NCBI GenBank assembly: GCA_964594835.1 | Contig: CAZQNA010000003.1 | Location: 133,295-197,294, forward strand | Direction: 5' to 3' | DNA length: 64,000 nt | From: an uncultured Nitrososphaerota archaeon | Lineage (GTDB): Archaea; Korarchaeota; Korarchaeia; Korarchaeales; Korarchaeaceae | Program-made: the position numbers and the translations under genes | Notes under the pieces: generated by a model | What the model was told of the DNA's origin: nothing | The model's input: the letters and a program-made list of their open reading frames with translations, nothing else | Database searches by the model: none | Shown here: positions 9,795-27,134 of the stretch, in pieces | Position numbering within the stretch: the first letter of the stretch is position 1 | Layout: every line of letters starts with the position of its first letter

Positions 9795-10454
9795 TCAGGA
9801 GACCTTCTTGTGGCAGAGCCACCAGTCGAAGCACTCGATCTTCCCGGTCTTGGCCTCCTCGAGCCTCTTCTTGGCGGTCTCCTCGTCGGAGGCGGGCGGG
9901 ACGATCACATGGTCGCCGACCAGCTCGTTCTCGGGCCAGTTGGCGGGAATGGCCACGCCGTGCTTGTCGGACACCTGGAACCCCCTGATCATCCTCAGTA
10001 TCTCGTCCATGTTCCTTCCGAGCTCCTGCGGGTAGTAGAGGATCGCCCTGATGATGCCCTTGGGGTCTACTATGAAGACGGCCCTGACGGTGTTGGTCCC
10101 CTTGCCGGGGTGGATCAGGCCGAGGGCGCTGGAGACCTTGCCCAGGTCGTCCGCTATTATCGGGAACTTGATTTCGACCCCCAGATTCTCCTTGATCCAC
10201 TCGACCCACTTGATGTGGCTGAAGACCTGGTCGATGCTGAGTCCGATGAGCTCGGTGTTGAGCTCCTTGAACTTCTCGTACCTCTTCTGGAAGGCGACGA
10301 ACTCGGTGGTGCAGACTGGCGTGAAGTCGGCGGGGTGACTGAACAGGATGAACCACTTGCCCGCGAAGTGGTCGGGGAGCTTGATCTTGCCGTGGGTCGT
10401 CTGGACCTCTAGGGTCGGGAACTTCTCACCCAGTAGTGGAATCCTTCCCTCCAT
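9795..10454 (-). CDS. Archaeal peroxiredoxin (Prx6 type)
   Basis: [13 protein letters not shown] and C-terminal CFDWWLC. Confidence 0.96.
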
Positions 10455-10628: not shown

Positions 10629-11855
10629 CTAATCGCTCTCTCCAAGTTCCTCAACAACCTCCCCCTGGGTGGCCGGGGGCCTCTCGGCCCCCTCCCCCGA
10701 CACGGCGACGTAGATCAGGGCCCCGACAGCCACCAGGAGCGGTGCGAGGGCTGCACCCGTTATGACGTACAGGCTCGGAAGGTTGGTGAGGGGGTTGACG
10801 GCCTCGGTCGACAGGGCGTCGACCATCCAGCCCGGTAGCATGTTTAGGAGGTCAGGCCTGGCTATGAAGTAGGGCAGCTGGCTGTACATGTTCAGGAACT
10901 CCCCGGTTATCACGGCCCCGAGGGCTGAGGGCCCGAGCGTGACGATCCACCTCATGGAGTCCTCGTTGAGGGATCCCCGCCTGATCAGCGACCTCAAGGT
11001 GATCAGTATCACGGCGAACTGAGCGGCCACGAACCCCATCTTCACTAAGAAAAGCCAGGAGAAGTCCTTTGCCGGCTCCGCACCGAGGAACCTTCCGAAG
11101 ATGTTGACGAACTTGTACTGGGAGACGGAGAGCAGGCTGAGGGTGTACCAGAAGCCGAAGATCAGCATCAGGAAGAGGGATAGGGCCCCGCACGGGAGCA
11201 GGGCCCCCACGACCTCGGCGTACCTGTCCCTCAGCTCCCCCTCGCTGGCGGCGTGCCTCCAGGCGTAAGCGGAGGCGACCACGAACGCACCGGTGGCCAG
11301 GGCGCCGAACACGCTCTTCAGGTACAGCGGCATCAGGGTCGGGTTGGAGAGGGCCTCTCCCAGGACGAGGTGGAGCTTGGGCTGGAGCCTGAGCCCGAAG
11401 GGCGCGTTGAGGAACGCGAAGACGGCTCTGAACCCCAGGGGTATCAGCAAGCCAGTGGCGGCCATCGCGGCCCCTATGAGCAGGTGGACCCCCTTCGAGA
11501 CCCGGTCCCAGAGGTACCAGTAGCCCGCGACGGACAGGAACCTCAGCGCGATGAGCAGCACGGCGAGGCCGAATGGCACCCAGGTCAGGTGACCCGCCAG
11601 GCCTATGAACGCCGGGTAGAAGGCCAGGAGGGCCACGGTGAAGGCCGTCCCGAAGACCCCCGCAACCGCGTAGGTCATTGCGTAGTACCTCATGAGGCCC
11701 CTGGCCCTCTCGACCAGGAACTCGTCCTCCCTGCGCTCCCCCAGCCACTTCATGACGGGTATGAGGGTGGCCAGTCCGATGTCGAGGTTCACCAGGGCTA
11801 TGTGTAGGCCGAAGGCAAGCGAGAGGATGAAGACCACGGCGACCGGCTCCGGCAT
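10629..11855 (-). CDS. Cytochrome bd-type oxidase subunit CydA' (CydA paralogue)
   Basis: Multi-TM CydA homologue (FGLHIALVNL, GVFGT, YSQLPY) lacking several heme/quinol motifs; directly downstream of cydA. Confidence 0.8.
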   Translation of the reverse strand: MPEPVAVVFILSLAFGLHIALVNLDIGLATLIPVMKWLGERREDEFLVERARGLMRYYAMTYAVAGVFGTAFTVALLAFYPAFIGLAGHLTWVPFGLAVLLIALRFLSVAGYWYLWDRVSKGVHLLIGAAMAATGLLIPLGFRAVFAFLNAPFGLRLQPKLHLVLGEALSNPTLMPLYLKSVFGALATGAFVVASAYAWRHAASEGELRDRYAEVVGALLPCGALSLFLMLIFGFWYTLSLLSVSQYKFVNIFGRFLGAEPAKDFSWLFLVKMGFVAAQFAVILITLRSLIRRGSLNEDSMRWIVTLGPSALGAVITGEFLNMYSQLPYFIARPDLLNMLPGWMVDALSTEAVNPLTNLPSLYVITGAALAPLLVAVGALIYVAVSGEGAERPPATQGEVVEELGESD

Positions 11856-11863
11856 GGCTCAAC

Positions 11864-13492
11864 TCACCTCCTCCCCTCCTCCGCGGTCGCGGCCGCCCTC
11901 CTCCACAGGTAGAGGTAGACCATCGAGAGCAGGAGGGCCAGCAGCGCGACCAGGTAAAGGGCGACCAGCGCCAGCTGCCAGGCGGGTGGCGGGTTCACCG
12001 TCACCTCCGTCTGGACGTCCATTATGCCGTAGATGGCCCAGGGCTTCCTCCCGATCTCCCTCACCGCCCACCCCAGGAAGCTGACGAGCTGGGCCAGGAT
12101 GGGAGACAGGGACGAGGCCCACAGGACCCACCTGGGGGGCTCGTCGGCCCTCCTCAGCTCGAGCGCCGCGGCCAGCGCTGTGAGGCCGAGCAGAACTCCG
12201 AGGCCGACCTTCCCGTAGTAGAGATAGTGTACAACCAGCGGCGGCCTGAAGTCGGGGTGTATCAGGTCGTAGGAGGGCAGCACGGCGCTGGAGCTCCCGT
12301 AGGCGAGGAGCGGCATGAGCCTCCCGTGAACCAGGCCCTCCGCGTGGATAAGCTCCGGGAGGCTGGTTATCTGCTCGCTCGTCCCCTCCATGGCGGCGAG
12401 CTTCTCCGGGTTGAACTCAGCCACGGCGGCGCCCATGGCGTGGCCAGACCCGGTGCCCTGGATGGCCACTGCCACCAGGGCAGCAAGGGCCGCGAACCTG
12501 AAGGCCCTGAGGAAGTACTCCCTGTCCGGATCGTCCTCCGCCGTCCTTAGGAGCCTCAGCGCGTAGGCCCCCATGACCGTGAAGGCAGACACTGTGACGG
12601 CCGCCCCCACGGAGTGCACGAAAGTGGCGACGTAGGTGCCCGACTTGAACGTGATCGAGTAGACCCCGGCGTGCCTGACGGTGTTGGCGACTATCGAGTC
12701 GAGGACACTCTTGAGCGGGACGGAGGCGAGGGCCTGGGCCGCCTCTGGTCTGGCGACGGCCGCCAGGAGGCTGTCTCCCACCGTGTACCCCGCGAAGGCC
12801 TGAGACATGAGAGCCCTTACCAGCCCGGCCGGCAGGGAGACCAGGACGTAGTCGGCCCCGCTGTCGAGTATCCTCCCCCCGACCTCGGCGAGCCTCTGAG
12901 CGTCCAGGGCCTGGGCCACCTGTGTGGGGACGTAGAGGAGGACCTCCGGAGGGGCCCACGCCCCGGTGGACGGGTCGTAGTTGGCCAGGACGTTGGCGGG
13001 GGACTGCATGAAGGAGTTGACGCTCAGGATCATGGCCCCGGAGAACCAGGCGCCGGCCAGGGCAGCGACCCCCATGAGGAGGTGGACCCTGGGAGAGACC
13101 CTGCCGTCGGCGTAGAAGTAGAGGTAGATGAAGGCCACCTCCGTCATGAACGCGAAGATCTCCAGGTAGAGGGGGAAGTAGATGTACCTGCCCGCCGCCT
13201 CGGTCAGGTTGGGCCACAGCAGAATGAGGCCGAACTCCGAGGCGGTGCCGGAGGCGGCGCCGACCGCGAAGACCACGGTGAAGCCCTTCGCCAGATTCCG
13301 CGAGAGCCTCTTCCAGTACTCGTTCCCGGTCCTGAGCCAAATCGCCTCGGCAAAGACCGCCAGGAGCGGCAGCCCGAGGACGTACTGGAGTATCGCCCAG
13401 TGAACCTCTATCCCGACCAGGGACAGGAGCCGCTCGCGGCCCGCGGGATAGCCCCTCAGCCAGTCGAGAATCAGGTCGACGAGACCCGGCAT
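11864..13492 (-). CDS. cydA: Cytochrome bd-type quinol oxidase subunit I
   Basis: EVHW, FAVGAASGT, LEIFAFMTE, NSFMQSP, FVHSV, PEKLAAMEG, REIGRKPW. Confidence 0.92.
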   Translation of the reverse strand: MPGLVDLILDWLRGYPAGRERLLSLVGIEVHWAILQYVLGLPLLAVFAEAIWLRTGNEYWKRLSRNLAKGFTVVFAVGAASGTASEFGLILLWPNLTEAAGRYIYFPLYLEIFAFMTEVAFIYLYFYADGRVSPRVHLLMGVAALAGAWFSGAMILSVNSFMQSPANVLANYDPSTGAWAPPEVLLYVPTQVAQALDAQRLAEVGGRILDSGADYVLVSLPAGLVRALMSQAFAGYTVGDSLLAAVARPEAAQALASVPLKSVLDSIVANTVRHAGVYSITFKSGTYVATFVHSVGAAVTVSAFTVMGAYALRLLRTAEDDPDREYFLRAFRFAALAALVAVAIQGTGSGHAMGAAVAEFNPEKLAAMEGTSEQITSLPELIHAEGLVHGRLMPLLAYGSSSAVLPSYDLIHPDFRPPLVVHYLYYGKVGLGVLLGLTALAAALELRRADEPPRWVLWASSLSPILAQLVSFLGWAVREIGRKPWAIYGIMDVQTEVTVNPPPAWQLALVALYLVALLALLLSMVYLYLWRRAAATAEEGRR

Positions 13493-13928: not shown

Positions 13929-14657
13929 CTACACCTCAACGGGTACCGGCCCCGCTGGCTCGATGGACCTCCCCCTGAGCCTGAATCGGTGGGCGGCCAG
14001 CTCGACCCCCTCCCGGGCCGCCCTCCTCAGGGCCCTCGCGAACTTCGGGTCGGTCTCCTCGTTGGGAGAGAGCCTCTCCGCGTCGGGCCTCATTATGAGG
14101 AAGAGGACGAACGCCCTGAGTCCGGATCGGACGGCCCGGATGAGGTTGAGAACGTGCCTGGTTCCCCTCTCGGTGGGGGCGTCTGGGAAGAGGGCGAGCC
14201 CGTCGACGACCAGCGTGCACCCCTTCACCTCCACAAGCGTGGGGGGCGAGGTCTCCAGGAGGAGGTCAACCCTGCTGTCCCCGAACCTCACCTCCCTCCT
14301 GAACCCCGCGGTCGGCGGGAGGCCCGGGACCCCTCCGGACCTTATGAGCTCGACCGCCAGGTCCGAGTGGAGGCCGGAGTTTACGACCGTCCACCACGCC
14401 CCCGACCAGACCGCCAGGACCTCGCAGTCGGTCCTCCTCCCGGCCCCCTCTCTCTCGAGGAAGAGGGTCCTGGCGCCAGGCACGAGCAGCTCCCTGAGCC
14501 TCCCGGGATCGCGGAGGTGGCACCTCCTGATCCCACGAGACGTCTTCAGCAGCGCGGTGAACCGGTTTGGCCTCGACCTGAACAGCCCGAACCCGAGACG
14601 GCCCTCGATCCTCAACGACTCCCATCCGGGTAGTTCAGGTTTTTCAGCTTTCCCCAC
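13929..14657 (-). CDS. sfsA: Sugar fermentation stimulation protein A family (PD-(D/E)xK fold)
   Basis: RPNRF, HLRDPGRLRELL, SRVDLLL, VEVKGCTL, FPDAPTERGTRH. Confidence 0.93.
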   Translation of the reverse strand: MGKAEKPELPGWESLRIEGRLGFGLFRSRPNRFTALLKTSRGIRRCHLRDPGRLRELLVPGARTLFLEREGAGRRTDCEVLAVWSGAWWTVVNSGLHSDLAVELIRSGGVPGLPPTAGFRREVRFGDSRVDLLLETSPPTLVEVKGCTLVVDGLALFPDAPTERGTRHVLNLIRAVRSGLRAFVLFLIMRPDAERLSPNEETDPKFARALRRAAREGVELAAHRFRLRGRSIEPAGPVPVEV

Positions 14658-14676
14658 CGGCAGGCTTGGTGGTAGC

Positions 14677-15861
14677 TTGAGCTGGGTCAGAGCGGAGGTC
14701 GCTCCCGGCGTAACCCTCGTCAGGATCCTGAACACGACCTTCGAGAGGTTTGAGAACTTCTGGCCCATTCCTAGGGGGACCTCCTACAACTTCTACGTGG
14801 TGAGGGGGTCTGACGGCGTCGCGCTAATAGATGGGGCCGACGAGAGGGTATCGGACGTCTTCTGGGAGGCCCTGGAGAGCGTGGTCGACCCGTCAGAGAT
14901 AACCCTGGTGGTCTCCCAGCACACCGAGCCCGACCACTCCGGCACCCTCGCCGAGGTCCTGAGGAGGGCCCCGAGGGCGACGCTCGTCGGCACCAGCCAG
15001 GCAATCCAGATCGGGGCGTCCCTCTCCGGGTACCCCACGGACAGGTCGAGGCCGGTGGCCGACGGGGAGACCGTCAGCCTGGGGGACAGGACCCTGAGGT
15101 TCATCTCCGCCCCCTTCGTCCACTGGCCCGACACGATGATGACCCTGTTGGAGGAGGAGGGTATCCTGTTCACGTGCGACCTCTTCGGCTCCCACGGGGC
15201 CAGCAGGGCCGTCTACTACGACGAGGACCCCGACGGCTTCGAGCTGAGGGACTACTACTCCTCCATCCTGATGGTCTACTCGTCGATGGCGGCCAGGGCC
15301 GCCGCCAGGGCCCGGGAGCTCTCGCCCAGGGTGATTGCCCCCGGGCACGGTGCCCTCCACAGGGACGTCGACTGGATACTCGAGACCTACGAGAGGTGGA
15401 CGTCCTGGAGGCCGCTCAAGAGGGCCCTGATAGTCCTGGGAAGTCAGTACGAGCGGACCCAGAGGCTGGCGGAGGCGGCTGCGGAGGGCCTTAGGGGAGA
15501 GGGGTTCGAGGTCGTCACGATGGACACGGCCGAGGCCGACTACGACGACCTGCTCTCTGAGACCCTGGAGTCGGCCGCCCTGATCATAGCGTCGAGCACG
15601 CACAACGGCAGGCCCTTCCTGGGCGTCACCTTCTACCTGGACCTCCTCTCGGAGTACAAGCCGAAGAACAAGGTCGTTGCCCTGTTGGGGACGTACGGCT
15701 GGACCGGTGGGGCCCTCCGGGCCGTCAGGCAGGTGATCGAGGGGCTGAAGCTCCCGGTGGTGGGTGAGGTGTCCGTCAAGGGGACGCCGACCGGGGCAGA
15801 CCTGGAGGCTGCCCGAGACCTCGGCAGGAGGCTTGCTGAAGAGGCCCTCAAGCTCCTGTGA
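14677..15861 (+). CDS. fprA: Flavodiiron protein (A-type flavoprotein; O2/NO reductase)
   Basis: GTSYN, HTEPDHSG, HWPD, CDLFGSH, PGHG, followed by a flavodoxin domain (GTYGW). Confidence 0.93.
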   Translation: MSWVRAEVAPGVTLVRILNTTFERFENFWPIPRGTSYNFYVVRGSDGVALIDGADERVSDVFWEALESVVDPSEITLVVSQHTEPDHSGTLAEVLRRAPRATLVGTSQAIQIGASLSGYPTDRSRPVADGETVSLGDRTLRFISAPFVHWPDTMMTLLEEEGILFTCDLFGSHGASRAVYYDEDPDGFELRDYYSSILMVYSSMAARAAARARELSPRVIAPGHGALHRDVDWILETYERWTSWRPLKRALIVLGSQYERTQRLAEAAAEGLRGEGFEVVTMDTAEADYDDLLSETLESAALIIASSTHNGRPFLGVTFYLDLLSEYKPKNKVVALLGTYGWTGGALRAVRQVIEGLKLPVVGEVSVKGTPTGADLEAARDLGRRLAEEALKLL

Positions 15862-16693: not shown

Positions 16694-19390
16694 TCAGACG
16701 TCCAGCCTCCTCTGGGCCCCGGCCATCCTGCGCCAGGCCTCGCTGGGCCTCGCAGAGGCCTTGGCGGGGAATGCCTCCACCTCGACCCTCACCACGACTG
16801 GGAACGGGATGGGGCTGGCCATCCCCCATATGACCGCCTCGTGGTCTCTGAGCGAGGGAAGGAACCTCACGACGGCCTCCCCGGCCTCGGTGTACTTCGC
16901 GATGGCCTCCTGGTCGTTGCCGCTCTGCAGCCTGAACGCCGCCACGGTGTTGCACTGGCTGATGACGCCCTTCGAAACGTAGCTGGGCCTCTGGGTCACG
17001 ACTATGAAGCCCAGGTTGTACCCGCCGGCCTGGCTCACGGCCTCGGTCAGGGCGGACGCGATCCCCGAGCCGTATGGGTCTCCGACCACCGGGGAGCCCC
17101 TCTCCGGCGCCAGGTACTGGGCCTCCTCGACCACCACTATGGCGGCGAAGTCGCCGGCCCTCCTCCTGCTGACGGCGTGGGAGACGAGCCTGCGTATGAT
17201 CCTGCGGAGGGCGACGAACTGATCGTCGTAGTGGTTGTCCAGGCTCAAGTCCACGACGACGGCCGGGAAGTCCCCCAGGACCCTGACCACGTCGACGCCC
17301 TCCCCCCTCGACCTCTCTATGTCTCCCGCCGCCCTCCTGAGCCTGGCCTCGAGTCGGCGGAGCAGGGCCGTCCTGTCCCTGAGGGCCATCCTGGCGGCCA
17401 GGGTTCTGGCCCTGGAGATTATCCCGTCGACGGTCATGTCCCCGGCCTCGGCGGCCTCCTCGGCCGCCATGACGGTCAGCTCCCAGGCCCTCGTGCCGCG
17501 GTCGATCCCGGCCCTCCTCGCCACGTCCTCAGGTCTCAGGGCCCCGGACGTCGGGAGGAACGCCCTGTACTCCATCACCACGCCGCCCAGGTCGGCCAGT
17601 CCCTCGTACTCCCCCCTCCTGTCCAGCACGAGGAACCTGGGGCCGGGGGCGGCCTCCATCCCCCTCCTGATCAGGTTCAGGGTGAAGCTGCTGTTGTGCA
17701 CGAACGCCCCGTTGGCCAGGAAGTTCTCGTGCCTGTCGACGCTAAGGTCGTAGACCAGGTCCCCCTCGGCGTCCACCTCGATGACCGCCACGATCCTCTC
17801 GAACGTGACCTTCGCGTTGAGCACCCTGCTCACGAGCCTCAGGAGCCTCTCCAGGAGGGCCCTCTCACCTGGGTCCCTCGCCCTCTCCGCCGCCTCGACC
17901 AGCCTCTCCCTAGCCCTGATCAGCCTCTCCTTGTCTACGAGGTCCTCAGAGCCGATCATCCTCTTCGCCAGGAGCCTGAGCCTGCGCGGACCGTCCAGGG
18001 GAACCCTGAGGGTCGCGAGGCCCGCCCCGCTGAACCTCCCCGCGACCTCCTCCCTGAGGACCTTGAGGTCCCTCGAGTCCAGGACGAGGTAGTCATCCCC
18101 GAACTCGACGGTCCTGACCCCGGCCACCGCGGCAAGCGTGGAGGCGGCGGTCAGCTCCTGCCTGGACCTTGAGAGGAGGAAGAACTCCCCGTTGCCGTTG
18201 CAGCCCGTCCCCATGCAGCCAAGGGCTGAGGCGAGGGCGGCCCTGACGGTCCTCCCGTCGTACCTCAGCGCGAACGCCGGCCCCTCCCTCGCCGCCAGGT
18301 CGAGGACTCCGTCTGCCTCTATCAGGAGGCTGGAGGGATCCCGGAGGTCCGTCCAGCCTACGCCCAGGGACATGAGGCTCAGCCTGAAGTCGTCGGGCGC
18401 GCCTATCACGTAGATCTCCGACCTGTCCCTCCTGTGGCCCTGCGCGGCCACCACGCCGGCGACGGACGCGAGTTCTGGGTCCAGGGATCCCCTGCCCAGC
18501 TCCCCCCCTCCCCAGGGGACGACCAGGAAGTCCCTGCCGACCCTGACCGACTCCGGCCTGGCCGTCGCGACCCTCCCTCCCCTGAAAACGAGGAGGGAGT
18601 GATCTCCTGTGACCCTCAGCCTCCTTCCCGTCTCGGTGACGATCTCGTACATCCTCTGCGGTGAGGGGTGGGCCAGGATCGCCTTCACCGGGGCCCACTC
18701 CGGCTGGAGGGTCCTCCTGTTCAGGGCGAGGGTGAAGTACCTGACGCCCCCTACCTGCCCCCTCACCACCGCGAAGAAGTCCCCTATCGGGCCCAGCCAC
18801 ATCATGTCCTCGGCGACGTCGTATATGGCGATCACGGTGTCTCCGGAGACGCTCTTGCCCGACCTCGTCATTCCGGCCACGAACATGTGACCCCTGGCCA
18901 CGGCGTCGAGGTCCAGGTGCAGGGGGGCCCCGAGGCCCCTCATCCCACCCACCCTGACCGGCGTCCCCCCGGTGGCGGTGTCGCCCACGAAGTGCGCCAG
19001 CTCCTCGGCCGTGGGCTCAACCACGGGGGTCATGGTGGAGGGTGGAGCCTCGAGCGGAGATATCTCGCCCGACAGCGGGTCTCTGTACCCCAGGACCTCA
19101 GACTCTGCGAGCAGGTACTCCAGCTCGCTCGGGTAATCAGGCACGAGGCCCGACGAAGACGCGAGGACCGCGGCCCTCCCGGACTCCATCTCCTCGTTGA
19201 TCGCCGTGATCTCGTAGACCCTGACGAAGACCGTGGGCCCGTCAGGTCCGAAGAAGGGGTGCCTGAACCCGTAGTACCTACCGACGGCTACTCTCCTGTC
19301 TCTTCTTACCACGAAAGCCACTCTGGTGGGCGTGGATCCTGACATCACGTAGCCCACGATCCTCGCGTCCTCCAATCGAGCGCACCTCAC
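16694..19390 (-). CDS. herA: HerA/FtsK-family ATPase (DUF87) containing an intein
   Basis: HAS-barrel-like N-terminus; H-x-F-V-A-GMTRSGK|S Walker A split by the intein; LVLDRRGEY; Walker B VVEEAQ; VTQRPS; directly downstream of nurA. Confidence 0.9.
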   Translation of the reverse strand: MRCARLEDARIVGYVMSGSTPTRVAFVVRRDRRVAVGRYYGFRHPFFGPDGPTVFVRVYEITAINEEMESGRAAVLASSSGLVPDYPSELEYLLAESEVLGYRDPLSGEISPLEAPPSTMTPVVEPTAEELAHFVGDTATGGTPVRVGGMRGLGAPLHLDLDAVARGHMFVAGMTRSGKSVSGDTVIAIYDVAEDMMWLGPIGDFFAVVRGQVGGVRYFTLALNRRTLQPEWAPVKAILAHPSPQRMYEIVTETGRRLRVTGDHSLLVFRGGRVATARPESVRVGRDFLVVPWGGGELGRGSLDPELASVAGVVAAQGHRRDRSEIYVIGAPDDFRLSLMSLGVGWTDLRDPSSLLIEADGVLDLAAREGPAFALRYDGRTVRAALASALGCMGTGCNGNGEFFLLSRSRQELTAASTLAAVAGVRTVEFGDDYLVLDSRDLKVLREEVAGRFSGAGLATLRVPLDGPRRLRLLAKRMIGSEDLVDKERLIRARERLVEAAERARDPGERALLERLLRLVSRVLNAKVTFERIVAVIEVDAEGDLVYDLSVDRHENFLANGAFVHNSSFTLNLIRRGMEAAPGPRFLVLDRRGEYEGLADLGGVVMEYRAFLPTSGALRPEDVARRAGIDRGTRAWELTVMAAEEAAEAGDMTVDGIISRARTLAARMALRDRTALLRRLEARLRRAAGDIERSRGEGVDVVRVLGDFPAVVVDLSLDNHYDDQFVALRRIIRRLVSHAVSRRRAGDFAAIVVVEEAQYLAPERGSPVVGDPYGSGIASALTEAVSQAGGYNLGFIVVTQRPSYVSKGVISQCNTVAAFRLQSGNDQEAIAKYTEAGEAVVRFLPSLRDHEAVIWGMASPIPFPVVVRVEVEAFPAKASARPSEAWRRMAGAQRRLDV
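17693..18853 (-). mobile_element. Intein (387 aa) at the HerA Walker A motif, with degenerate LAGLIDADG endonuclease
   Basis: Starts SVSGDT; block B VTGDHSL; ends VYDLSVDRHENFLANGAFVHN followed by +1 Ser. Splicing would restore GMTRSGKSSF. Confidence 0.92.
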
Positions 19391-20547
19391 GACTCACCGT
19401 GCTGAAGGGCCAGCAGGGTGAGTATGTCGACCCTCTCGGTCCCCAGCCTCGAGGCCAGGGTCGAGAACATCCGGCGGTGGAGCAGGGCGGCCTCACGGTT
19501 GGTCACCCGCGTGAGGCGGTCCACCGCCACTATGGGGACGGGGAGGCCAGCCGGGGGAACCCTGAGAGAGTACAGCCTGCTGACCACCTCGTGCACCCTG
19601 TCGAGGGCGAACTCCGGGACGTCCAGTCTGTAGGACTGGCCCCCTGTCCCCGACCTCACGATCACGGAGTGGGGCCTCAGGCCCGAGGGGTCGACGTCGG
19701 CCTCCCTGAGGTGCCCGAGCAGGTCGGCCCACGCGGACTCCATTGGGAGCGGGGAGGTGTACTCTCCGGGGGACAGGCAGAGCGCCGCCAGGGCGGAGTC
19801 GCCCGTGGAATCGAGGCCTATCATTCTGGCGACGTGGGTGGACCTCACCCGCTTCACCACGCCCACGACCGGGACCCCCCTCTCCCTCGCCTCCTCGAGC
19901 AGGAGGGAGAGCGACCTCCAGGCGGACCAGTAAGCCCTCAGGTAGGTCCTGCCGTAGTGCCTACCCCTAGGGCCGTAGGCGCTCCTCCTGAGAACGAGCG
20001 GACCGTCGATCAGGATGCCGTCGCTGGACTCCTCCACGATCCTCCTAGCCAGCTCGAACTGCAGGTAGTATCCCACGAGCGTGGAGAGCTTCTTGGCCTC
20101 CTCCTCGTCCCCGTAGAGCCTCGGGAGCTTTGCCGTCGCGGACCTCGGTCCTGAGATCATGGTGGAGCCCCTGAAGGTCGCCCCGACAGCCGTCACGATC
20201 GGGTAGACCCCGACGAGGAGGTCTCTGCCGTTGGCGCCAGCATCAACGGCCCCGAAGGTCGAGGAGGAGGGATCCACCGGCTCAACCCTCTGGATGCCCA
20301 CCGAGGAGCGGAGGGCCGCCCTCAGGCGGCGTATCTTCTCGGCGAGCCTCATGGTCTCGTCGGCGTGCTCGACTGCCTGCTCGGCCAGCTCGGCCCTCAG
20401 CCTATCGTAAGGCACCAGCTTGTACTCCAGCGGAGCCTCGCCCAGGTAGGGCTCCAGCGGGCCGCGCCGGTCGACCCCGCGCCTGACGGCCTTGGCCAAC
20501 TCGCATCCCCGAGATCGCGTAAGTTTGACGATACTTTCCTCCTCCAT
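19387..20547 (-). CDS. nurA: NurA-family 5'-3' nuclease
   Basis: FGAVDAG, ILIDGPL, VGVVKR, GLPVPIVAVD; overlaps the herA start. Confidence 0.88.
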   Translation of the reverse strand: MEEESIVKLTRSRGCELAKAVRRGVDRRGPLEPYLGEAPLEYKLVPYDRLRAELAEQAVEHADETMRLAEKIRRLRAALRSSVGIQRVEPVDPSSSTFGAVDAGANGRDLLVGVYPIVTAVGATFRGSTMISGPRSATAKLPRLYGDEEEAKKLSTLVGYYLQFELARRIVEESSDGILIDGPLVLRRSAYGPRGRHYGRTYLRAYWSAWRSLSLLLEEARERGVPVVGVVKRVRSTHVARMIGLDSTGDSALAALCLSPGEYTSPLPMESAWADLLGHLREADVDPSGLRPHSVIVRSGTGGQSYRLDVPEFALDRVHEVVSRLYSLRVPPAGLPVPIVAVDRLTRVTNREAALLHRRMFSTLASRLGTERVDILTLLALQHGES

Positions 20548-20688
20548 GTAGATAAATTATGATACTCAGCCTTCATGTGTAAATCCAAAACTTAACTTCA
20601 AAATGCGCGCGTGCCGCTTGAGGATCGCTTTGACGTTAGAAGACTTTTTTAGTTATCAAAATTGATTTTGCAGCGGAAGGCGACCACC

Positions 20689-21450
20689 TTGGCCAGGGGC
20701 ACGTACCTGGTGTTGGCCGAGAACGGCTCGATTGAGGAGCTGACGGCGGTACACAGGAGGCTGCCCCCGAGGGTGGTCTACGGGCTCGTTCAGAGGGGAT
20801 CGAGCGGGGACTCGGCGGTGAGGGAGTACTGCGACAGGGTCGGCCCCTTCGTCGAGAGGGTGGTCCTCCAGGAGGTCAACCTCTACGACCTCGACGAGGT
20901 CCTCGACGTTGTCCAGCACGCCGCCCACGAGGCCGAGAGGGACGGGGCAGAGGTTTACCTTCTGCTCAACTCCGTATCTCCCGTCGTTCCCGCGGCCTTC
21001 CAGCTCGCCGCCTCCTTCTTCGGCCTGAGGGTGGTCGTCGCCTACGGGGACTCGGTCGACGAACTCCCAGTCCCGCCAGCCGGCGTGCTGGCGATGCCCA
21101 AGAGGGTCCTGGACATAGTTGAGGCCCTCGCGAAGAGCCCCGAGGGGATGAAGCTCAGCGAGCTCGCCTCCGCGGTGGAGCACAGGGAGAGGGTGAGGGG
21201 AAAGAGGAGCAAGACGGACGAGCTGAGGAGGAGGGTCGCGACGGTCGACTACTACATCAACAGGTACCTCAAGCCGCAGGGCCTCGTCGAGGTGGGCCCC
21301 GGCCAGGGTGAGGGGCGGGGGTTCAGGATAAGGCTGACCCAGAGGGGCAGGGTCGTGGCCAGGCGGGTCGAGTACTTCAAGGAGGCCATCTCAAGGCTAG
21401 AGGGCGCGAAGAAGCCTGAGGGCCCAGCTCTCGTGAGCGTGAGCGGGTGA
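20689..21450 (+). CDS. CARF/Rossmann-like + winged-helix transcriptional regulator (Csa3/DUF6293-like)
   Basis: N-terminal alpha/beta domain (VNLYDLDEV...VYLLLNS...AFQLAA) then wHTH (ALAKSPEGMKLSELA...YLKPQGLVEV...IRLTQRG). Confidence 0.7.
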   Translation: MARGTYLVLAENGSIEELTAVHRRLPPRVVYGLVQRGSSGDSAVREYCDRVGPFVERVVLQEVNLYDLDEVLDVVQHAAHEAERDGAEVYLLLNSVSPVVPAAFQLAASFFGLRVVVAYGDSVDELPVPPAGVLAMPKRVLDIVEALAKSPEGMKLSELASAVEHRERVRGKRSKTDELRRRVATVDYYINRYLKPQGLVEVGPGQGEGRGFRIRLTQRGRVVARRVEYFKEAISRLEGAKKPEGPALVSVSG

Positions 21451-21469: not shown

Positions 21470-23440
21470 TCAGTCAGCCCCCCTCTCCAGCTCGTACCTG
21501 AGGAGCCTCTCCAGGTCTCTCCTCACGATGGGCTCGATCCTCCTGTAGAGATCCGGGTTGATCTCCCTCAGCTGCTCGACCTTTATGGCGGCCTCGATTA
21601 TCTGGTACCTGCGTCCCTCGAGGGACGTCCTCTCGAGCTCCTCCCGCAGCGAGGAGACCACGGGCGTGAAGGCCCCCTCGAGTGACCTCAGCCCCCTCCC
21701 AGCCAGCCTCAGGAAGTCGTACCACACGTCCCTCAGCCTGAGCCCCACGAGGGCCTGCACCAGGTAGGCGGCGGCCAGCAGCAGAAGGACGGTCCCCAGC
21801 CTCTTCGTCACCCAGACTCCCAGGAACGCCTGGGCCAGCTGGACCCGCTCTATCACCACATAGGTCGTGAGGGTGAGGGTGGCCATGAAGAGGTTCACGC
21901 CGACTCCGAGCCTGAACACCGAGAAGATGAACCAGTTGAGGACGAGGAACATGATGCCGAGGATGAATGTCTGGGGCTCAATCAGATAGTAGGCCGTCAG
22001 GACGATGAGGCAGGCGGCCGAGACGGTCAGGTCCCTGACCGTGCCCAGCGGGCCAATGGTTCCCCTCCTCAGCTGGAAGTCGGCCAGCGAGATCAGGGCG
22101 AGCGAGAGAAGTATGCCCACGTCAGCTATGCCTACGAGGGTGTTCGTCTCCAGGAGGCCCATTATCAGCGCCATGGCGAGGGTGAACATCCAAGAGTGCC
22201 TCGTTATCGACTGGGGGATCAGCCCGTCCCTGCCCAGCTCCTCGAGGTGCCTCTTGGCGGCCATGTAGGAGGGGGTGAGGGTGGTCACGGCCGCCAGTAG
22301 GACCAGGGCGGAGTTGACCAGCACGGCCGTCTCCCCGATCCCGAAGGATATCTCCAGCGGGGGGATGTCCCCCGACAGGTCGAAGGGCGATATGACGATG
22401 GAGTAGGCGGCGAAGATCACCGTCGACAGGGCCACGGTGAGCATCATCACCCAGCCCACGTACCTCTCCCTCGGTACCCTGCCGACGAGCGGTATCGATA
22501 TCTCCGGCCTGCTCTCCTCGAAGAGCGCCTGGACCTCTTGGAAGCCGAAGAGGACAAGGTAGATGTATCCGGCGTTGAACACGACGTCCCTCAGCGCGAT
22601 CCCGCTCTCGGCGAGGACGTCGATCGGAGACGACGGGGAACTCTCAAGGAAGCTGGACAGGCTGATGAACAGGAGGGCGAGGAACGTTATGATCAGAACG
22701 GCCTGGACCGCGGTGACCTCCCTCCTGTGCGTACCCTCGTACTTGAACAGGAGGGCCGCCCAGAGGAGGACCGCGCCGCCTATCCCCATGATCATGAGCT
22801 CGGCCCCCTCGCCCCAGAACCCCAGGGTGGAGAGCACCTCCGGGAGATAGGAGGCCAGGAACTTCACCGACATGACGAGGTTGAAGGCGGTGAGCGCCGT
22901 CGTCCCGACCCACATGCTGAGCCTGCTGAGGAAGTAGGACGCCCCGGGGCCGTAGGCCGACTTGACGAACGCGGGCCCACCTACGGACCTCTCCCCCCTG
23001 CCCGAGAGGAGCCTACCCATGGTGCCGTAGGCCTGCGCCAGCAGGAGAGAGATGGCCCCAGAGACGGCGATGGCCGCCAGGGTGGAGGCCACCGAGGAGG
23101 ACCTTATCGCGTAGGGGAGGACCGTGAGCATGGATATGCCCATGGTCGACCCCAGCCCAGCCACCAGGAGGGAGAGGAACCCGTAGATGGGCTCCGGCGC
23201 CGCCTCCCCCATCTTCAGCTCGAGGCCACCGACCAGCCTGCGGAATATCCCCCCGAGGAATATGAGCCCCCCGATGCCGTAGACCATGGCGAGGGTGGAG
23301 CCCAAGATGAGGGAGACCGGGTTCCTGTCCCTGAAGAGCGCGAGCCCCACCAGGAGCGCCGCGGCCAGCATCAGGCTCAGCGCGCCGGCGAATAGCCTCA
23401 CGACCAGCAGGGCCCTCTTGAGCTGATCGGTCACCACCAC
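21470..23440 (-). CDS. APC-family amino acid permease
   Basis: GSTMGISM TM1 motif, GGPAFVKSAYG, FGFQE, many TMs. Confidence 0.82.
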   Translation of the reverse strand: MVVTDQLKRALLVVRLFAGALSLMLAAALLVGLALFRDRNPVSLILGSTLAMVYGIGGLIFLGGIFRRLVGGLELKMGEAAPEPIYGFLSLLVAGLGSTMGISMLTVLPYAIRSSSVASTLAAIAVSGAISLLLAQAYGTMGRLLSGRGERSVGGPAFVKSAYGPGASYFLSRLSMWVGTTALTAFNLVMSVKFLASYLPEVLSTLGFWGEGAELMIMGIGGAVLLWAALLFKYEGTHRREVTAVQAVLIITFLALLFISLSSFLESSPSSPIDVLAESGIALRDVVFNAGYIYLVLFGFQEVQALFEESRPEISIPLVGRVPRERYVGWVMMLTVALSTVIFAAYSIVISPFDLSGDIPPLEISFGIGETAVLVNSALVLLAAVTTLTPSYMAAKRHLEELGRDGLIPQSITRHSWMFTLAMALIMGLLETNTLVGIADVGILLSLALISLADFQLRRGTIGPLGTVRDLTVSAACLIVLTAYYLIEPQTFILGIMFLVLNWFIFSVFRLGVGVNLFMATLTLTTYVVIERVQLAQAFLGVWVTKRLGTVLLLLAAAYLVQALVGLRLRDVWYDFLRLAGRGLRSLEGAFTPVVSSLREELERTSLEGRRYQIIEAAIKVEQLREINPDLYRRIEPIVRRDLERLLRYELERGAD

Positions 23441-23446
23441 GGGTGA

Positions 23447-23872
23447 TCATCCCTCCTCCATCACGCCCAGACCCTGCATCACCTCACCGGCGTTCGAGAG
23501 GCTGTTGACGCACATGACCAAGAGGGCGAGGCCCACGAGGAAGGTGAGGAACCTTATGCCGGAGACGTTTGCTTGGGTCAGGAGGTCCAGGAACTGGTAC
23601 ATGGCCCCCTGAAACTCCTCCTCACTCGACGGTACCACCAGCAGCAGGCCGACCACGAGGAATATGGCCGACAGGAGGAACTGCATCAGCACGTATAGCA
23701 GGCCAAGGAACTTGCTACCGTAGAGTAGGGGGTGCCTTATCGCGAAAACCAGCCTCGAGAGGGCCGGGTCCCTCTCCATCCTCTTGATCAGGCTGGCGAC
23801 CTCTGAAGGATCGTCGAGCCTCCCCCTGACCGCCTCAGCCAGCCTGTCAACGGTGTCGTCGCCTGAATCCAT
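23447..23872 (-). CDS. Hypothetical 2-TM membrane protein
   Basis: Two hydrophobic helices; co-oriented with the permease. Confidence 0.7.
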   Translation of the reverse strand: MDSGDDTVDRLAEAVRGRLDDPSEVASLIKRMERDPALSRLVFAIRHPLLYGSKFLGLLYVLMQFLLSAIFLVVGLLLVVPSSEEEFQGAMYQFLDLLTQANVSGIRFLTFLVGLALLVMCVNSLSNAGEVMQGLGVMEEG

Positions 23873-23980
23873 CGGAAGTCGAAGGGGTCCCTCCGGTCAC
23901 CGGATAAACGTTCTGCGGCGCGCGCCTCCCCCAGCCCGGAGTCCGTGAATATTTTTGACGTTGGGGTCGCATGTCAACCG

Positions 23981-25189
23981 ATGGGCCGCCCCGGCGGAGA
24001 CAACGGCTCGGCAAGGTTCACGCTCTACTACCTGGCGTTCATCGTCACCCTGGCCCACGGGACCGTGACGACGCTCCTCTCCCTCTACCTCAACGCCATG
24101 GGCTACGGGGGCTCACAGATAGGGCTCTTCAACGCCGGATTCACCGCCGCCTCCGCGCTGGCCTCCTGGGCCGCCGGCCGCGTGTCGGCGGCGAGGGGCT
24201 ACGTGACCGCGCTCCTCCTATCCCTCATCCCGCCCGCGGCCCTCGCCCCGCTGTTCCCGCTCGCCATGACGCCGGCGGTGACCCTGACGGCCGTGCTGGT
24301 CTACGGCCTGTCCAACGGATCCTTTGGGACGGCCGCCGTGGGCCTGCTCTCGGAGATTCCGGGGGAGAGAGGCGCTGCCGTCTCGTTCGGGGCGTTCTAC
24401 ACCGCGGTCGTCCTGGGGAAAACGGCCTCCGGCGTGCTGGCGGGGGCCATCGTGGAGGGGGCGGGCTACCCCCACCTGCTCCTGGCCGGGGGACTCCTGA
24501 TGGCGGCCGCGGCCCCCTCGGTCGTCCTCCTCCAGGGCAAGGTGGGGAGCAGGGGGACGAGCCCCGTAAGGAGCCCGGCAGACAGAGCACCCCGCTCAGG
24601 CGGGGGAATCTCGCGCTCGATGGCGATCCTGCTCGTCGCCCTGTTCCTCCACACGATGGGGTTCATGGCGGTCAGCCCGTTCTTCTCCCTGTACGCCCTG
24701 AGAGAGCTGGGGCTCAGGGAGGGCCTCGTCGGAACCCTTATGTCCGTCCGGAGCTCGGGGGTCCTTCTCTTCGAGCTGGCCGCCGGGTACCTGGCAGCGC
24801 TCGCCGGCTCAACGGAGGTCTTGACCGCCCACGTCCTCCTGTCCTCGGTGGCCTGGTCGGCCTTCACACTCTCCCGGGGATTCTGGTCGGCCGCCGTCGT
24901 CCTCCTCTTCGGTGGCGTCGTGGGGGCGCTCGACATGCCAGCCAGGAGGTCCCTCATCTCCGAGCTGAGCGCCCCGGGGGAGGAGAGGGCCAGGTCCATG
25001 GGGCTCGTGGACTCCGTGACTGGAGTGGCCTCGGCCCTCGGATTCCTCGTGGGAGGCGCCCTGTGGGACGCGGTCGGTCCCAAGGCCCCCTTCTTGGTCG
25101 CCTCGGCGTACAACGCCGCGGCCGTCCCGCTCCTCATGTGGCTCAGGAGGAGGCGCCCTCGGGCGGCGCCGGGGCGGGACCAGTCCTGA
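23981..25189 (+). CDS. MFS transporter
   Basis: About 12 TMs; ARRSLISELSAPGEERARSMG, GGALWD. Confidence 0.9.
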   Translation: MGRPGGDNGSARFTLYYLAFIVTLAHGTVTTLLSLYLNAMGYGGSQIGLFNAGFTAASALASWAAGRVSAARGYVTALLLSLIPPAALAPLFPLAMTPAVTLTAVLVYGLSNGSFGTAAVGLLSEIPGERGAAVSFGAFYTAVVLGKTASGVLAGAIVEGAGYPHLLLAGGLLMAAAAPSVVLLQGKVGSRGTSPVRSPADRAPRSGGGISRSMAILLVALFLHTMGFMAVSPFFSLYALRELGLREGLVGTLMSVRSSGVLLFELAAGYLAALAGSTEVLTAHVLLSSVAWSAFTLSRGFWSAAVVLLFGGVVGALDMPARRSLISELSAPGEERARSMGLVDSVTGVASALGFLVGGALWDAVGPKAPFLVASAYNAAAVPLLMWLRRRRPRAAPGRDQS

Positions 25190-25201
25190 GGGTGACGGGG
25201 G

Positions 25202-25648
25202 TCAGCGAGATCCTGCTCGGGTGAGGAACCTCTGGAGGGGATTGAGAGACCAGAGGAGGGAGTCCAAGAGGATCCAGGCCGCCAGGATGTCCCTCATTGG
25301 GGTGAGGTCGACCTCCACGGTACCCCCGGGGATCGCCGCGGCTGCCCTCCCCGGGGCCCGGAGGGCGAAGGCCGCGAAGTAGGCCCCGGCTGCCGCGGAG
25401 AGTACGGGGGACAGCGGCGTCTCCCTGAGGGCCCCCGACAGGAAGGAGATCACCGCGTAGACCGCAAGGTCGACCGTCAGAAGCTCGGTCAGGGGAGGGA
25501 GGCTCGGCCCGAGCCCCTCCCCCGGGGCCGGGAGGAGGGACGCCAGGAGGCTAAGGGTCAGCCAGAAGGCCGCGGCCAGGAGCGCCCTCCTGGCGCCCTC
25601 CCTCAGGTCGACCGGTCGTCCCCCGCTCAGCCCCCTCTCAGGCTCCAC
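25202..25648 (-). CDS. Hypothetical membrane protein
   Basis: Hydrophobic; overlapping three-gene operon. Confidence 0.65.
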   Translation of the reverse strand: MEPERGLSGGRPVDLREGARRALLAAAFWLTLSLLASLLPAPGEGLGPSLPPLTELLTVDLAVYAVISFLSGALRETPLSPVLSAAAGAYFAAFALRAPGRAAAAIPGGTVEVDLTPMRDILAAWILLDSLLWSLNPLQRFLTRAGSR

Positions 25649-25977
25649 CTGGCCCTCACCTCCACCACGCCCATGGATCTGAGGACCATCTCGGCCCCGT
25701 CGGCCGCCGCCAGTAGAGCGGGGTCCAGCTCAACCCCTCGGCTGCTGCCCGGGGGGAGCGTCATCTCTACGGCGCCCACTAGGTCCCGATCCGAGTAGAA
25801 GGCGAGCCGGATCTCCACCTCCATCGGTGAGGAGTTCCTGACGACGAGGCCGCCTGACGGGGATGGCTCGATCGCTATGTCGCCCTCGTAGAGGGAGTAC
25901 GCCAGCAGCAGCCACGGGACGAGGTAGAGCAGGAAGAGAGCCCCTGCAGCCAGTCTAAGGGGAGTAGACGGATTCAC
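25627..25977 (-). CDS. Hypothetical membrane-anchored protein
   Basis: GTG start overlaps the upstream TGA; N-terminal TM followed by a beta-rich domain. Confidence 0.6.
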   Translation of the reverse strand: MNPSTPLRLAAGALFLLYLVPWLLLAYSLYEGDIAIEPSPSGGLVVRNSSPMEVEIRLAFYSDRDLVGAVEMTLPPGSSRGVELDPALLAAADGAEMVLRSMGVVEVRARWSLRGG

Positions 25978-26240
25978 GACCCCTCCTCCCCCTCCCTCAG
26001 CTTGAGGAGTCCCCAGAGTCCCCTGTCTAGCAGGTAACCACCGGCGGTCATTCCGACGGCGAGCGGGACGAGCCTGATTATGGTCGACACGAGGGTGGAA
26101 AGTCCGCTCTCCAGGTCCCCGCTGGGAGGGGGCGAAGAGAACATCTGAACGCTGTAGTAGAAGCCCGCCACGACCATTCCGATCCCGAGGAGGGCTGACA
26201 CCGTGGCCACCACCAGCGCGAGCCTCGAGGGAGTCACCAT
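25974..26240 (-). CDS. Hypothetical 2-TM protein
   Basis: Two TMs; operon context. Confidence 0.65.
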   Translation of the reverse strand: MVTPSRLALVVATVSALLGIGMVVAGFYYSVQMFSSPPPSGDLESGLSTLVSTIIRLVPLAVGMTAGGYLLDRGLWGLLKLREGEEGS

Positions 26241-26353
26241 CGTCCCACCTCCCGTGCAGATTCGTCACCGGTCGAGGGTCGGCTCCTTTTATCTACCTGA
26301 CCCCCGCGGGCCTGCGGGGTAGGGAGACGTCGCGGAGGGCCCTGGTCGCGCTG

Positions 26354-27109: not shown

Positions 27110-27134
27110 ATCCCCGCACGCCTCCGGCCTTGAG

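Follow-up and report, generated by a model that had tools for sequence, protein, structure and literature searches.

The window analysed herein is a 64,000-nucleotide stretch of DNA (positions 133295-197294 of contig C3) from an archaeal genome, G000, which comprises 1.82 Mb in 24 contigs with a guanine plus cytosine (GC) content of approximately 65%. Database relatives of the proteins encoded in this window carry the source names Candidatus Korarchaeota or Korarchaeum. Two of its genes, for a NurA nuclease (nurA3) and a HerA-type ATPase (herA3), are arranged divergently from a third gene, whose product combines a CARF domain with a winged helix and is called the regulator below. We judge that these three genes probably constitute a locally autoregulated, accessory NurA-HerA module for the processing of DNA ends, wherein the CARF domain may respond to a small ligand and the motor protein is split by an intein.

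According to this proposal, nurA3 and herA3 would be expressed as one operon, and the resulting accessory nuclease and translocase would process DNA ends alongside, and not instead of, the products of the canonical nurA-herA-mre11-rad50 operon. The regulator would be a dimeric transcription factor with a CARF domain (CARF3/Csa3/DUF6293-like) and a winged helix, which binds a single palindrome located after its own TATA-like element and autoregulates, most likely by repression. It may also set the level of nurA3-herA3 expression, depending on a small ligand that occupies the interface of the CARF dimer. Cyclic oligoadenylates made by a type III-B Cas10 protein are a possible ligand in this organism, but they cannot be the general answer. 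The HerA3 precursor has its Walker A motif split by an intein that appears to be splicing-competent and non-mobile, and because the intein interrupts the Walker A loop, the ATPase is predicted to need protein splicing. The features on which this proposal is built are as follows (aa, amino acids).

16694..19390, minus strand: herA3 open reading frame (ORF), 898 aa from GTG 19390, or 893 aa from the likelier TTG 19375
18854..19390, minus strand: HerA3 N-extein, with the HAS-barrel and the opening portion of Walker A up to ...GMTRSGK (residue 179)
17693..18853, minus strand: intein, 387 aa, HerA3 residues 180-566
16694..17692, minus strand: HerA3 C-extein, from SSFTLN... to the stop codon, the remainder of the ATPase core
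19387..20547, minus strand: nurA3, 386 aa from ATG 20547, or 370 aa from the likelier TTG 20499
20500..20688, no strand: shared divergent control region, AT-rich, which takes in the 5' leaders of both genes
20657..20670, no strand: candidate operator palindrome CAAAATTGATTTTG, directly 3' of the TATA-like element of the regulator gene
20645..20656, plus strand: TATA-like element TTTTTTAGTTAT of the regulator gene, read from the sequence and conserved in five same-genus loci
20524..20533, no strand: direct repeat TTTGACGATA, with a second copy TTTGACGTTA at 20629-20638
20689..21450, plus strand: regulator gene, 253 aa from TTG 20689; CARF domain at residues 11-139 and winged helix at approximately 141-249 (residues of the structural model)

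The extra NurA-HerA pair and its distribution

NurA3 matches the Pfam NurA model (PF09376) with 40.1 bits (cut-off 21) over model positions 81-254 only; orthologues from another genus match positions 2-253. A search of the NurA3 sequence against solved structures returned nothing at E<=1, and solved counterparts emerged only from a fold search. The solved structure closest to a model built with 10 orthologues (predicted local distance difference test score, pLDDT, of 77) is 2ygk, the NurA protein of S. solfataricus (E 6.9e-12, template-modelling score 0.54/0.63), and the NurA proteins of T. kodakarensis and P. furiosus are next. Residues D102, E150, G182, K232, R233 and D250 are invariant across three NurA paralogue types and D181 is nearly so (at least 90%). 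We take D102, E150, D250 and D181 to be the active-site acidic residues of NurA3.

The herA3 ORF yields weak Pfam matches to HAS-barrel, DUF87 and FtsK, wherein those to HAS-barrel and DUF87 fall below their cut-offs because the intein splits the gene. The assignment of the encoded protein is nevertheless evident from PADLOC HerA models, which match down to E 4.6e-20, from the presence of PF01935 in its orthologues, and from the EEAQY and QRP motifs of the C-extein, which are invariant in all 12 orthologues.

Three NurA loci were found in the genome, and NurA3 is only 23-25% identical to the two other copies (23% to the canonical one). On contig C4, nurA, herA, a gene for an Mre11-type phosphoesterase and a gene for a Rad50-type SMC ATPase are consecutive on one strand and represent the canonical repair operon, while a second nurA-herA pair resides on C3 itself, approximately 90 kb upstream of the window. 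NurA3-HerA3 is an accessory copy of the pair, as the first-pass annotation of the window had supposed when it described a stand-alone pair, and the possibility it had raised that these are the only nurA and herA genes of the genome does not hold. Its statement that no mre11, rad50 or cas gene occurs in the 64 kb holds for the 19 neighbouring ORFs from 8654 to 30895, which is the part of the window that was scanned gene by gene. The Mre11 and Rad50 genes of this genome are on contig C4, and those for Cas10, the Cmr proteins, Cas1 and Cas6 are on contig C8.

The association of the three genes is a persistent one. Representatives of the regulator were identified by profile search in 37 of 43 genomes of the phylum, including 23 of the 25 genomes with at least 90% completeness and at most 5% contamination. 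In 32 of these 37 genomes, the regulator gene is positioned head-to-head with nurA3 on one contig, and in the other five (G012, G044, G045, G046 and G050) a contig end or an odd assembly intervenes, with no different arrangement observed in any of them. Wherever the contig permits, HerA3 follows NurA3. Two high-quality genomes (G005 and G007) carry neither the regulator nor NurA3. A related-locus search with a narrower alignment recovered 11 loci, all from Korarchaeota-type metagenome-assembled genomes. The trio proposed earlier is therefore conserved in other genomes, and its regulator is syntenic across the phylum. The module is vertically inherited and near-universal in this phylum.

Beyond the phylum, NurA3-like genes were found in five genomes of a 301-genome sample, and among these five loci, all of which were fetched, only two (in G072 and G066) include an adjoining HerA3-like gene. 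A divergent gene for an XPD-like helicase is present at one of these two loci and a gene for a Cas4-like nuclease is nearby at the other; a scan of the neighbours in these two genomes revealed no CARF gene next door to the pair.

The gene boundaries given above merit some comment. All three ORFs are present at the coordinates proposed in the first-pass annotation (16694-19390 and 19387-20547 on the minus strand, and 20662/20689-21450 on the plus strand). The GTGA overlap of nurA and herA that it reported does exist at 19387-19390, but the true herA start is probably located 15 nt downstream, at TTG 19375, because this codon has GAGGTG 8 nt upstream and agrees with an 893-aa database gene call. 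The two genes are tightly coupled with either herA start. When the control regions of five same-genus genomes are aligned, ATG 20547 of nurA is missing in two of the five loci and TTG 20499, which has a G-rich stretch upstream, is kept in all five; database calls for NurA3 are likewise 370 aa long. The spacer measures 189 bp with the nurA start at TTG 20499, as opposed to 141 bp with ATG 20547. The product of the regulator ORF would be 253-262 aa long depending on its start (20689 or 20662). TTG 20689 is conserved in the five same-genus genomes, and 20662 was ruled out as the start by a 1-nt indel upstream in the same alignment. The AT-richness of the spacer, also noted earlier, is borne out by a GC content of 0.404 over 20548-20688, compared with 0.652 for the whole window, and only 0.4% of 141-bp windows are as low.

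Two minor observations concern related loci. The second pair, at C3:60610-63190 (locus L012, 8610-11187), encodes a NurA protein that scores 54.8 bits and a 495-aa HerA-like ATPase; upstream of it are a metallo-beta-lactamase-fold gene and two ORFs without a Pfam match, with no CARF gene seen there. In an 83%-complete relative (locus L101, G050:C55:1587-3204), the N-terminal 381 residues of HerA3 are in frame with a stretch similar to the winged helix of the regulator in a 539-aa reading frame, and this fusion is probably an artefact of assembly or a rearrangement.

The regulator and its candidate operator

The PADLOC model CARF3--CARF matches the regulator at residues 20-242 (E 7.1e-21). An AlphaFold model of the protein, built with 12 family members (pLDDT 81), gives CARF matches with a Foldseek probability of 1.00, and CARF domains that bind the cyclic oligoadenylates cA4 or cA6 are on top. 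When compared by VIA, the N-terminal domain (residues 11-139) is most similar to that of Can1 (6sce; Z 15.2 over 121 residues, root-mean-square deviation (rmsd) 2.2), followed by Cam1 (Z 14.4), T. thermophilus Csm6 and Can2 (Z 14.1 for both), and then by many other CARF proteins that bind cyclic oligoadenylates. The C-terminal domain resembles winged helices of the MarR/HxlR type (Z 10.5-11.4). The Pfam models HFX_2341_N and DUF6293_C are each matched by 11 of the 12 family members (E<=1; best values 1.4e-6 and 8.3e-8), with the regulator of the window itself scoring below both cut-offs (PF19810 and PF22665; 14.4 compared with 30, and 20.8 compared with 27). Taken together, the PADLOC, Pfam and Foldseek/VIA results agree with the earlier assignment of a CARF-like N-terminal domain and a winged-helix C-terminal domain, and they point to a relationship with DUF6293/HFX_2341.

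A homodimer is predicted with a score of 0.82, compared with 0.00 for the best control, and three runs agree on at least 94% of the contacts with pLDDT values of at least 81. In calibration, this mark was reached by 20 of 30 proteins solved as pairs and by 1 of 23 solved as single chains. The predicted interface is symmetric and involves residues 102-121 and 133-147. Conservation is highest in the recognition-helix region (VDYYINRYLKP), whereas in the N-terminal domain only A19, A112 and P138 are invariant or nearly so in the family alignment. Regulators outside the genus are only 24-28% identical to that of the window. A single-sequence search retrieved 7 representatives at E<=0.001 among 1.84 billion, a number that restricts how deep the folding alignment can be. 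Elsewhere in the same genome, two more weak matches to the regulator profile, at C17:2377-2637 (E 2e-6) and C1:205465-205869 (E 1.9e-4), cover mainly the winged helix and may represent further regulators of the same type.

Inspection of the spacers from 26 orthologous loci revealed a palindrome, CAAAAT-NN-ATTTTG, situated a few bases 3' of the AT-rich, TATA-like element of the regulator gene. The strict form is present in 17 of the 26 spacers, whereas 2000 shuffles gave 0.0095 on average and never more than 1. It is found in three of four spacers from the same genus as the window, the fourth (locus L067 of G003) being one mismatch away, and in all 14 from a second genus. Its half-sites are fixed, while the two central bases vary (TG, TC, GT, TT, AC, CA, CG, GA, AT or CT). 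This is the sole such site in the 1.82-Mb genome, even when one mismatch is allowed, and five other genomes (G001, G013, G019, G024 and G006) each contain exactly one site, which is always in the spacer between nurA3 and the regulator gene.

The TATA-like element TTTTTTAGTTAT, which by its sequence presumably serves as a promoter element of the regulator gene, is followed by a conserved leader ATTTTGCAGCGGAAGGCGACC. Archaeal repressors typically act between the TATA element and the start of the gene. Given that the palindrome lies within this interval, autorepression is the best-supported regulatory step, and control of nurA3-herA3 is suggested by the invariant head-to-head linkage. The first-pass annotation proposed instead that the regulator switches on the divergent operon, which is unproven; the position of the palindrome points first to autorepression of the regulator gene. 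The direct repeat TTTGACGATA/TTTGACGTTA is a possible further binding element, and the core of its second copy is kept in all five same-genus loci; its two copies are short, and could have arisen by chance. Another motif nearer to nurA, with the reversed arrangement ATTTTG-N-CAAAA, was seen by eye in several spacers. Its strict form occurs in only two of the 26, and we make no claim for it.

Several observations weigh against the interpretation of this protein as a ligand-responsive repressor of its own gene and of the adjacent operon. The strict palindrome is absent from nine of the 26 spacers, and in eight spacers (two from g2, three from g5, and L088-L090) neither the strict nor the one-mismatch form is present; variant palindromes were read there by eye only. 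Moreover, a single genus supplies 14 of the 17 strict matches, which are kin rather than independent examples. The palindrome is approximately 110 bp from the TATA-like element of nurA, and control of nurA3-herA3 is not evident from this geometry. With regard to the protein, the best two-domain structural matches are the ring nucleases Sis0811 (Z 14.1, 180 residues) and Sso1393 (Z 11.9, 191 residues) and not Csa3 (Z 10.5-10.6, rmsd 12.5-13.7), and the positive outcome of the dimer prediction may mirror the likeness to solved CARF dimers. In the CARF signature, strand 1 is followed by a conserved S/T and strand 4 by a [DN]x[ST]xxx[RK]-like motif. This signature is only partly kept in the family of the regulator, whose alignment shows an S/T-rich loop after strand 4 but neither a conserved basic residue there nor a conserved Ser following strand 1, which leaves ligand binding uncertain.

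An intein in the Walker A loop of HerA3

The first-pass annotation had overlooked an intein within herA3. The Pfam model Intein_splicing matches HerA3 residues 221-566 with 63.3 bits (cut-off 35.8), and NCBIfam models for the N and C termini of inteins also match (for TIGR01443, 30.5 compared with a cut-off of 15.6). When HerA3 is aligned with the two intein-free HerA paralogues of the genome and 11 orthologues from elsewhere, the insert is seen to separate Lys from Ser in Walker A (GK/S), in the context GMTRSGK/SVSGDTV...FVHN/SSF. The predicted spliced HerA3 protein would be 511 aa long (from GTG), with an intact GMTRSGKS loop restored. The intein begins with Ser1 (SVSGDTV), includes TGDH as block B, and terminates in HN with Ser at position +1. 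In all 12 orthologues the same site is occupied, and S180, the block B residues T261 and H264, H565-N566 and S567 are invariant.

The splicing parts have diverged at about the same pace as the exteins, with 25-86% identity among these proteins in the N-terminal part of the intein and 47-93% in the C-extein. Between genera, identity is only 14-21% in the central part; the whole intein ranges from 240 to 397 aa in length, and no match to a homing endonuclease of the LAGLIDADG or HNH type was found at E<=1 in the central 226 aa. The GC content of the intein (0.677) equals that of its host gene. Versions of HerA3 that are free of the intein are found in three genomes of the two outlying families of the phylum, in the two relatives examined from outside the phylum (G072 and G066), and in database relatives named Bathyarchaeia, which are 500-530 aa long and 37-46% identical. 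These comparisons would be explained most simply if the intein had entered herA3 once, long ago, in the ancestor of the main class, and had then lost its mobility and descended vertically. Two public proteins of the HerA3 family (P0065 and P0078) are 1220-1399 aa long and carry LAGLIDADG_3, one of them also helix-turn-helix domains, and hence intact or larger inteins exist elsewhere in this family.

P-loop inteins are common in ATPases and some are environmental switches (PMC4760082, PMC4513877). The HerA3 intein resembles those of MCM, DnaB and RFC-S (Novikova 2016, PMC4760082) and the conditional RadA intein (Topilina 2015, PMC4513877) in its position, within the Walker A loop of an ATPase of DNA metabolism, and its long retention suggests a possible post-translational switch. 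However, it differs from these in that its host is a HerA paralogue, its first residue is Ser rather than Cys, and its endonuclease domain has decayed. No description of a HerA intein was found in the literature searched, and the word 'HerA' is absent from the main text of PMC4760082, the supplements of which, outside this scope, possibly list one. We consider this invariant, non-mobile P-loop intein to be a candidate for post-translational control of a recombination-type ATPase.

Known systems and competing explanations

The closest published counterpart of the module is the nurA-csm6-herA cluster of Thermoproteales (Bernick 2012, PMC3396285; Vestergaard 2014, PMC3973734; clusters 57/58 of Shah 2018, PMC6546367). 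In both cases an extra NurA-HerA pair is tied to a CARF gene, each genome contains at least three such pairs, inheritance is vertical within the lineage, and no function is known to have been demonstrated. In the Thermoproteales cluster, csm6 (APE2256 type) is located between nurA and herA, is co-transcribed with them and stands beside CRISPR arrays, whereas the CARF gene of the window includes a winged helix, is divergent, has its own candidate operator and is unlinked to cas genes. No intein is reported for that cluster in the portions of the literature covered. Shah 2018 also describes HerA and NurA families that coevolved with type III systems. The PADLOC NurA model PDLC01056 finds no match in the genome at E<=0.01, wherein this model is labelled only 'NurA' and its identity with the type III-coevolved family is inferred from its number, which is next to PDLC01055. 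The corresponding HerA model, PDLC01055, scores the canonical copy best and matches the HerA protein of the window at no better than E 0.0015. Membership of the window pair in the CRISPR-associated clade of Thermoproteales is therefore not supported.

Csa3 proteins of S. islandicus provide a second comparison. Csa3a binds imperfect palindromes in the promoters of the second nurA-herA operon (SiRe_0094/0095) and of the canonical operon (Liu 2017, PMC5587795), and over-expression of Csa3b raises the canonical operon 2.4- to 3-fold (Ye 2020, PMC7480081). These proteins resemble the regulator, itself a predicted dimer, in being dimers with a CARF domain and a winged helix-turn-helix (wHTH). However, Csa3a is the product of a cas-locus gene that acts in trans on many promoters, whereas the regulator lies beside its candidate target and has a single site genome-wide. 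The architecture of the Csa3 family is thus found here, but its cas linkage is not. HFX_2341, a Csa3a-like repressor of haloarchaea with an unknown ligand, is vertically inherited and occurs also in species that lack CRISPR-Cas (Turgeman-Grott 2024, PMC11434293). Like the regulator, it is a CARF-wHTH protein that is inherited vertically and is present in the absence of type III CRISPR, but it is described as regulating globally and has no link to nurA-herA.

With the canonical herA-mre11-rad50-nurA operon, the window pair shares the same two families and a tight coupling of genes, but it lacks mre11 and rad50. The anti-phage systems Sir2-HerA, DUF4297-HerA and TdpAB also combine a HerA-type hexameric ATPase with a nuclease-like partner. 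Among solved structures, the best sequence matches of HerA3 are the anti-phage HerA proteins 8xau (E 1.3e-9), 8wiv and 9c1m, with Sulfolobus HerA at 2.2e-4, and a TdpAB chain (8wfd) is among the fold matches of NurA3 (E 1.8e-7). However, HerA3 scores only 51.7 and 40.8 bits with the NCBIfam antiphage-HerA models NF042943 and NF042944 (cut-offs 800 and 850), its partner is a true NurA protein, no Sir2, DUF4297 or tdpC gene is nearby, and its distribution is vertical. Finally, the Crn1-type ring nucleases Sis0811/Sso1393 (PDB 7pq2/7pq3, 3qyf) share the two-domain CARF plus wHTH organization, but the residues mutated in the Sis0811 entries according to their titles (Ser12 and Lys169) have no invariant counterpart in the family alignment of the regulator.

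CARF-linked NurA-HerA pairs and Csa3-controlled nurA-herA operons are thus already in print. New here are a regulator encoded in cis with a unique candidate operator, phylum-wide retention without the need of a detectable Cas10, and a P-loop intein in HerA; none of these three features was found described in the literature searched. The CARF-linked NurA-HerA paralogues of Crenarchaeota have been known since 2012 with no function assigned, and for Csa3a, control of a nurA-herA operon is known from Sulfolobus alone and solely in trans. The present module offers the cleanest case so far, with one regulator, one unique 14-bp candidate operator and one target operon, found phylum-wide and including genomes wherein no Cas10 was detected. 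It makes testable both what non-CRISPR CARF-wHTH proteins of the DUF6293 type sense and what extra NurA-HerA pairs do.

The genome does have the means for cyclic-oligoadenylate signalling. Contig C8 includes a type III-B module (Cmr4, Cmr5, Cmr1, Cmr6, Cas10 and Cmr3) together with Cas1, Cas6 and a Csa3/CasR-like gene, and the Cas10 ORF carries GGDD and an N-terminal HD motif. A k-mer scan of the genome located two CRISPR arrays, with 171 and 34 repeats, only on C8. Such signalling in this organism is therefore plausible. The Csa3/CasR-like gene is matched by both the CARF3 and the Csa3 models of PADLOC, which indicates the kind of protein that the CARF3 label takes in, but its product is only remotely similar to the nurA-linked regulator (hhalign probability 64.5%). 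Among the 27 genomes with at least 90% completeness, Cas10 (Cmr2 or Csm1 models) was found in 16; all 16 also have the module, nine have the module alone, two have neither and none has Cas10 alone, although these genomes are few and closely related. The nine that carry the regulator without a Cas10 match are G003, G006, G010, G016, G023, G028, G030, G043 and G044, two of which are 99% complete, with the caveat that Cas loci can go missing from metagenome bins. By this measure, the distribution of the regulator resembles that of HFX_2341 and not that of a CRISPR accessory gene. The link to a cyclic oligoadenylate signal that the first-pass annotation implied is thus not supported. Nor is its view of the locus as a defence module, given that the genes are vertically inherited, near-universal and placed among respiratory and oxidative-stress genes rather than in a defence island, and that the kin outside the phylum lie beside repair-type genes and lack a CARF neighbour. 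As the role of the module we favour DNA repair or the processing of DNA ends, which may feed CRISPR adaptation, over stand-alone defence.

The explanations that must be weighed against an autoregulated accessory module are not all distinct from it, and two of them overlap with it except in ligand and role. One is that NurA3-HerA3 is a plain repair paralogue, a second end-resection machine whose CARF-shaped domain serves only for dimerization or senses a non-immune metabolite. This is possible, if clearly less probable than the reading we prefer. It would fit the phylum-wide vertical inheritance, the neighbouring genes for cytochrome bd oxidase, a peroxiredoxin, a flavodiiron-type protein and a transporter, the intein-free kin from two other archaeal lineages, whose neighbours include an XPD-like helicase gene in one case and a Cas4-like nuclease gene in the other but no CARF gene, the weak conservation of ligand-site residues, and the precedent of HFX_2341 as a CRISPR-independent regulator (PMC11434293). 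However, the CARF fold is well kept and its post-strand-4 loop falls on the predicted dimer axis, which suggests a retained pocket, and the window neighbours are not conserved beyond the genus (as judged from the 656-aa ORF, the only one checked). The other overlapping explanation, which we regard as doubtful, is that the module serves type III CRISPR as an ancillary arm, wherein cyclic oligoadenylate made by Cas10 binds the CARF domain and switches on nurA3-herA3, such that invader DNA is degraded or prespacers are made. The complete Cmr module with its Cas10 motifs, Cas1, Cas6 and arrays would allow this, as would the top structural matches to CARF folds that bind cA4 or cA6, and G005 and G007, which lack the regulator, also lack a Cas10 match. 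Precedents include the CRISPR-linked nurA-csm6-herA genes of Thermoproteales (PMC3396285) and the activation of nurA-herA by Csa3a in Sulfolobus during adaptation (PMC5587795). Against it stand the nine of 25 high-quality regulator genomes without Cas10 (not decisive, since loss from bins is possible), the separation of the module on C3 from the cas genes on C8, the separate and only remotely similar Csa3/CasR-like gene that adjoins the Cmr genes, and the PADLOC results for PDLC01056 and PDLC01055. A bolder combination, which we hold to be rather improbable, is a DNA degrader with two keys: a Cas10-independent CARF sensor of a nucleotide signal would derepress nurA3-herA3 through the one operator reserved for it, and HerA would become active only after conditional splicing of its P-loop intein (triggered, for example, by heat, redox state or DNA damage), making this a phylum-wide stress or immune effector. 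If this were true, the double gating would protect the DNA of the cell itself.

Two further explanations depart more widely from an autoregulated accessory module. The CARF-wHTH protein might not be a transcription factor, but a ring nuclease of the Crn1 type (as are Sis0811 and Sso1393) or a sensor subunit that docks on NurA-HerA, as might be the case for the co-transcribed csm6 product of Thermoproteales. The two-domain structural matches, with Csa3 superposing so poorly, and weak Cas_APE2256 matches in three of 12 family members favour this view. We nonetheless find it very unlikely, given that the unique and conserved palindrome beside the gene argues for DNA binding, that the recognition-helix region is the best-conserved part of the protein, and that, as far as the sequence alignment of the family tells, there is no invariant Ser at the end of strand 1 and no invariant Lys. 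We give hardly any credence to the possibility that the locus is a mobile defence island or integrated element that carries NurA-HerA by chance. Anti-phage HerA proteins do rank ahead of Sulfolobus HerA as matches of HerA3, and a run of ORFs without Pfam matches extends from 21470 to 28145. However, the GC content is flat and that of the intein equals that of its host gene, the phylum-wide synteny tracks taxonomy, the antiphage-HerA scores are far below their cut-offs, and the partner is NurA rather than Sir2 or DUF4297.

With regard to the genomic surroundings, the GC content is flat over the locus, and no defence model matched either of the two neighbours scanned with PADLOC. Elsewhere in the genome, the C8:12000-62000 region (L099 and L100) with the cas genes also encodes a BrxC/D-like ATPase with a C-terminal wHTH. 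On the herA3 side of the module there is an oxygen-handling cluster that includes a peroxiredoxin gene (9795-10454), two adjacent genes for cytochrome bd subunit-I-like proteins (10629-13492 and 13963-15861) and a gene for a flavodiiron-type protein with a beta-lactamase fold plus flavodoxin; a gene for an EamA transporter is also on that side. Beyond the regulator gene, the ORFs without a Pfam match at 21470-28145 measure 656, 145, 141, 417, 148, 213, 354 and 360 aa, and some overlap one another and are perhaps not genuine genes. The longest, of 656 aa, is oriented convergently to the regulator gene and, among the loci checked, is kept beside it only within the genus.

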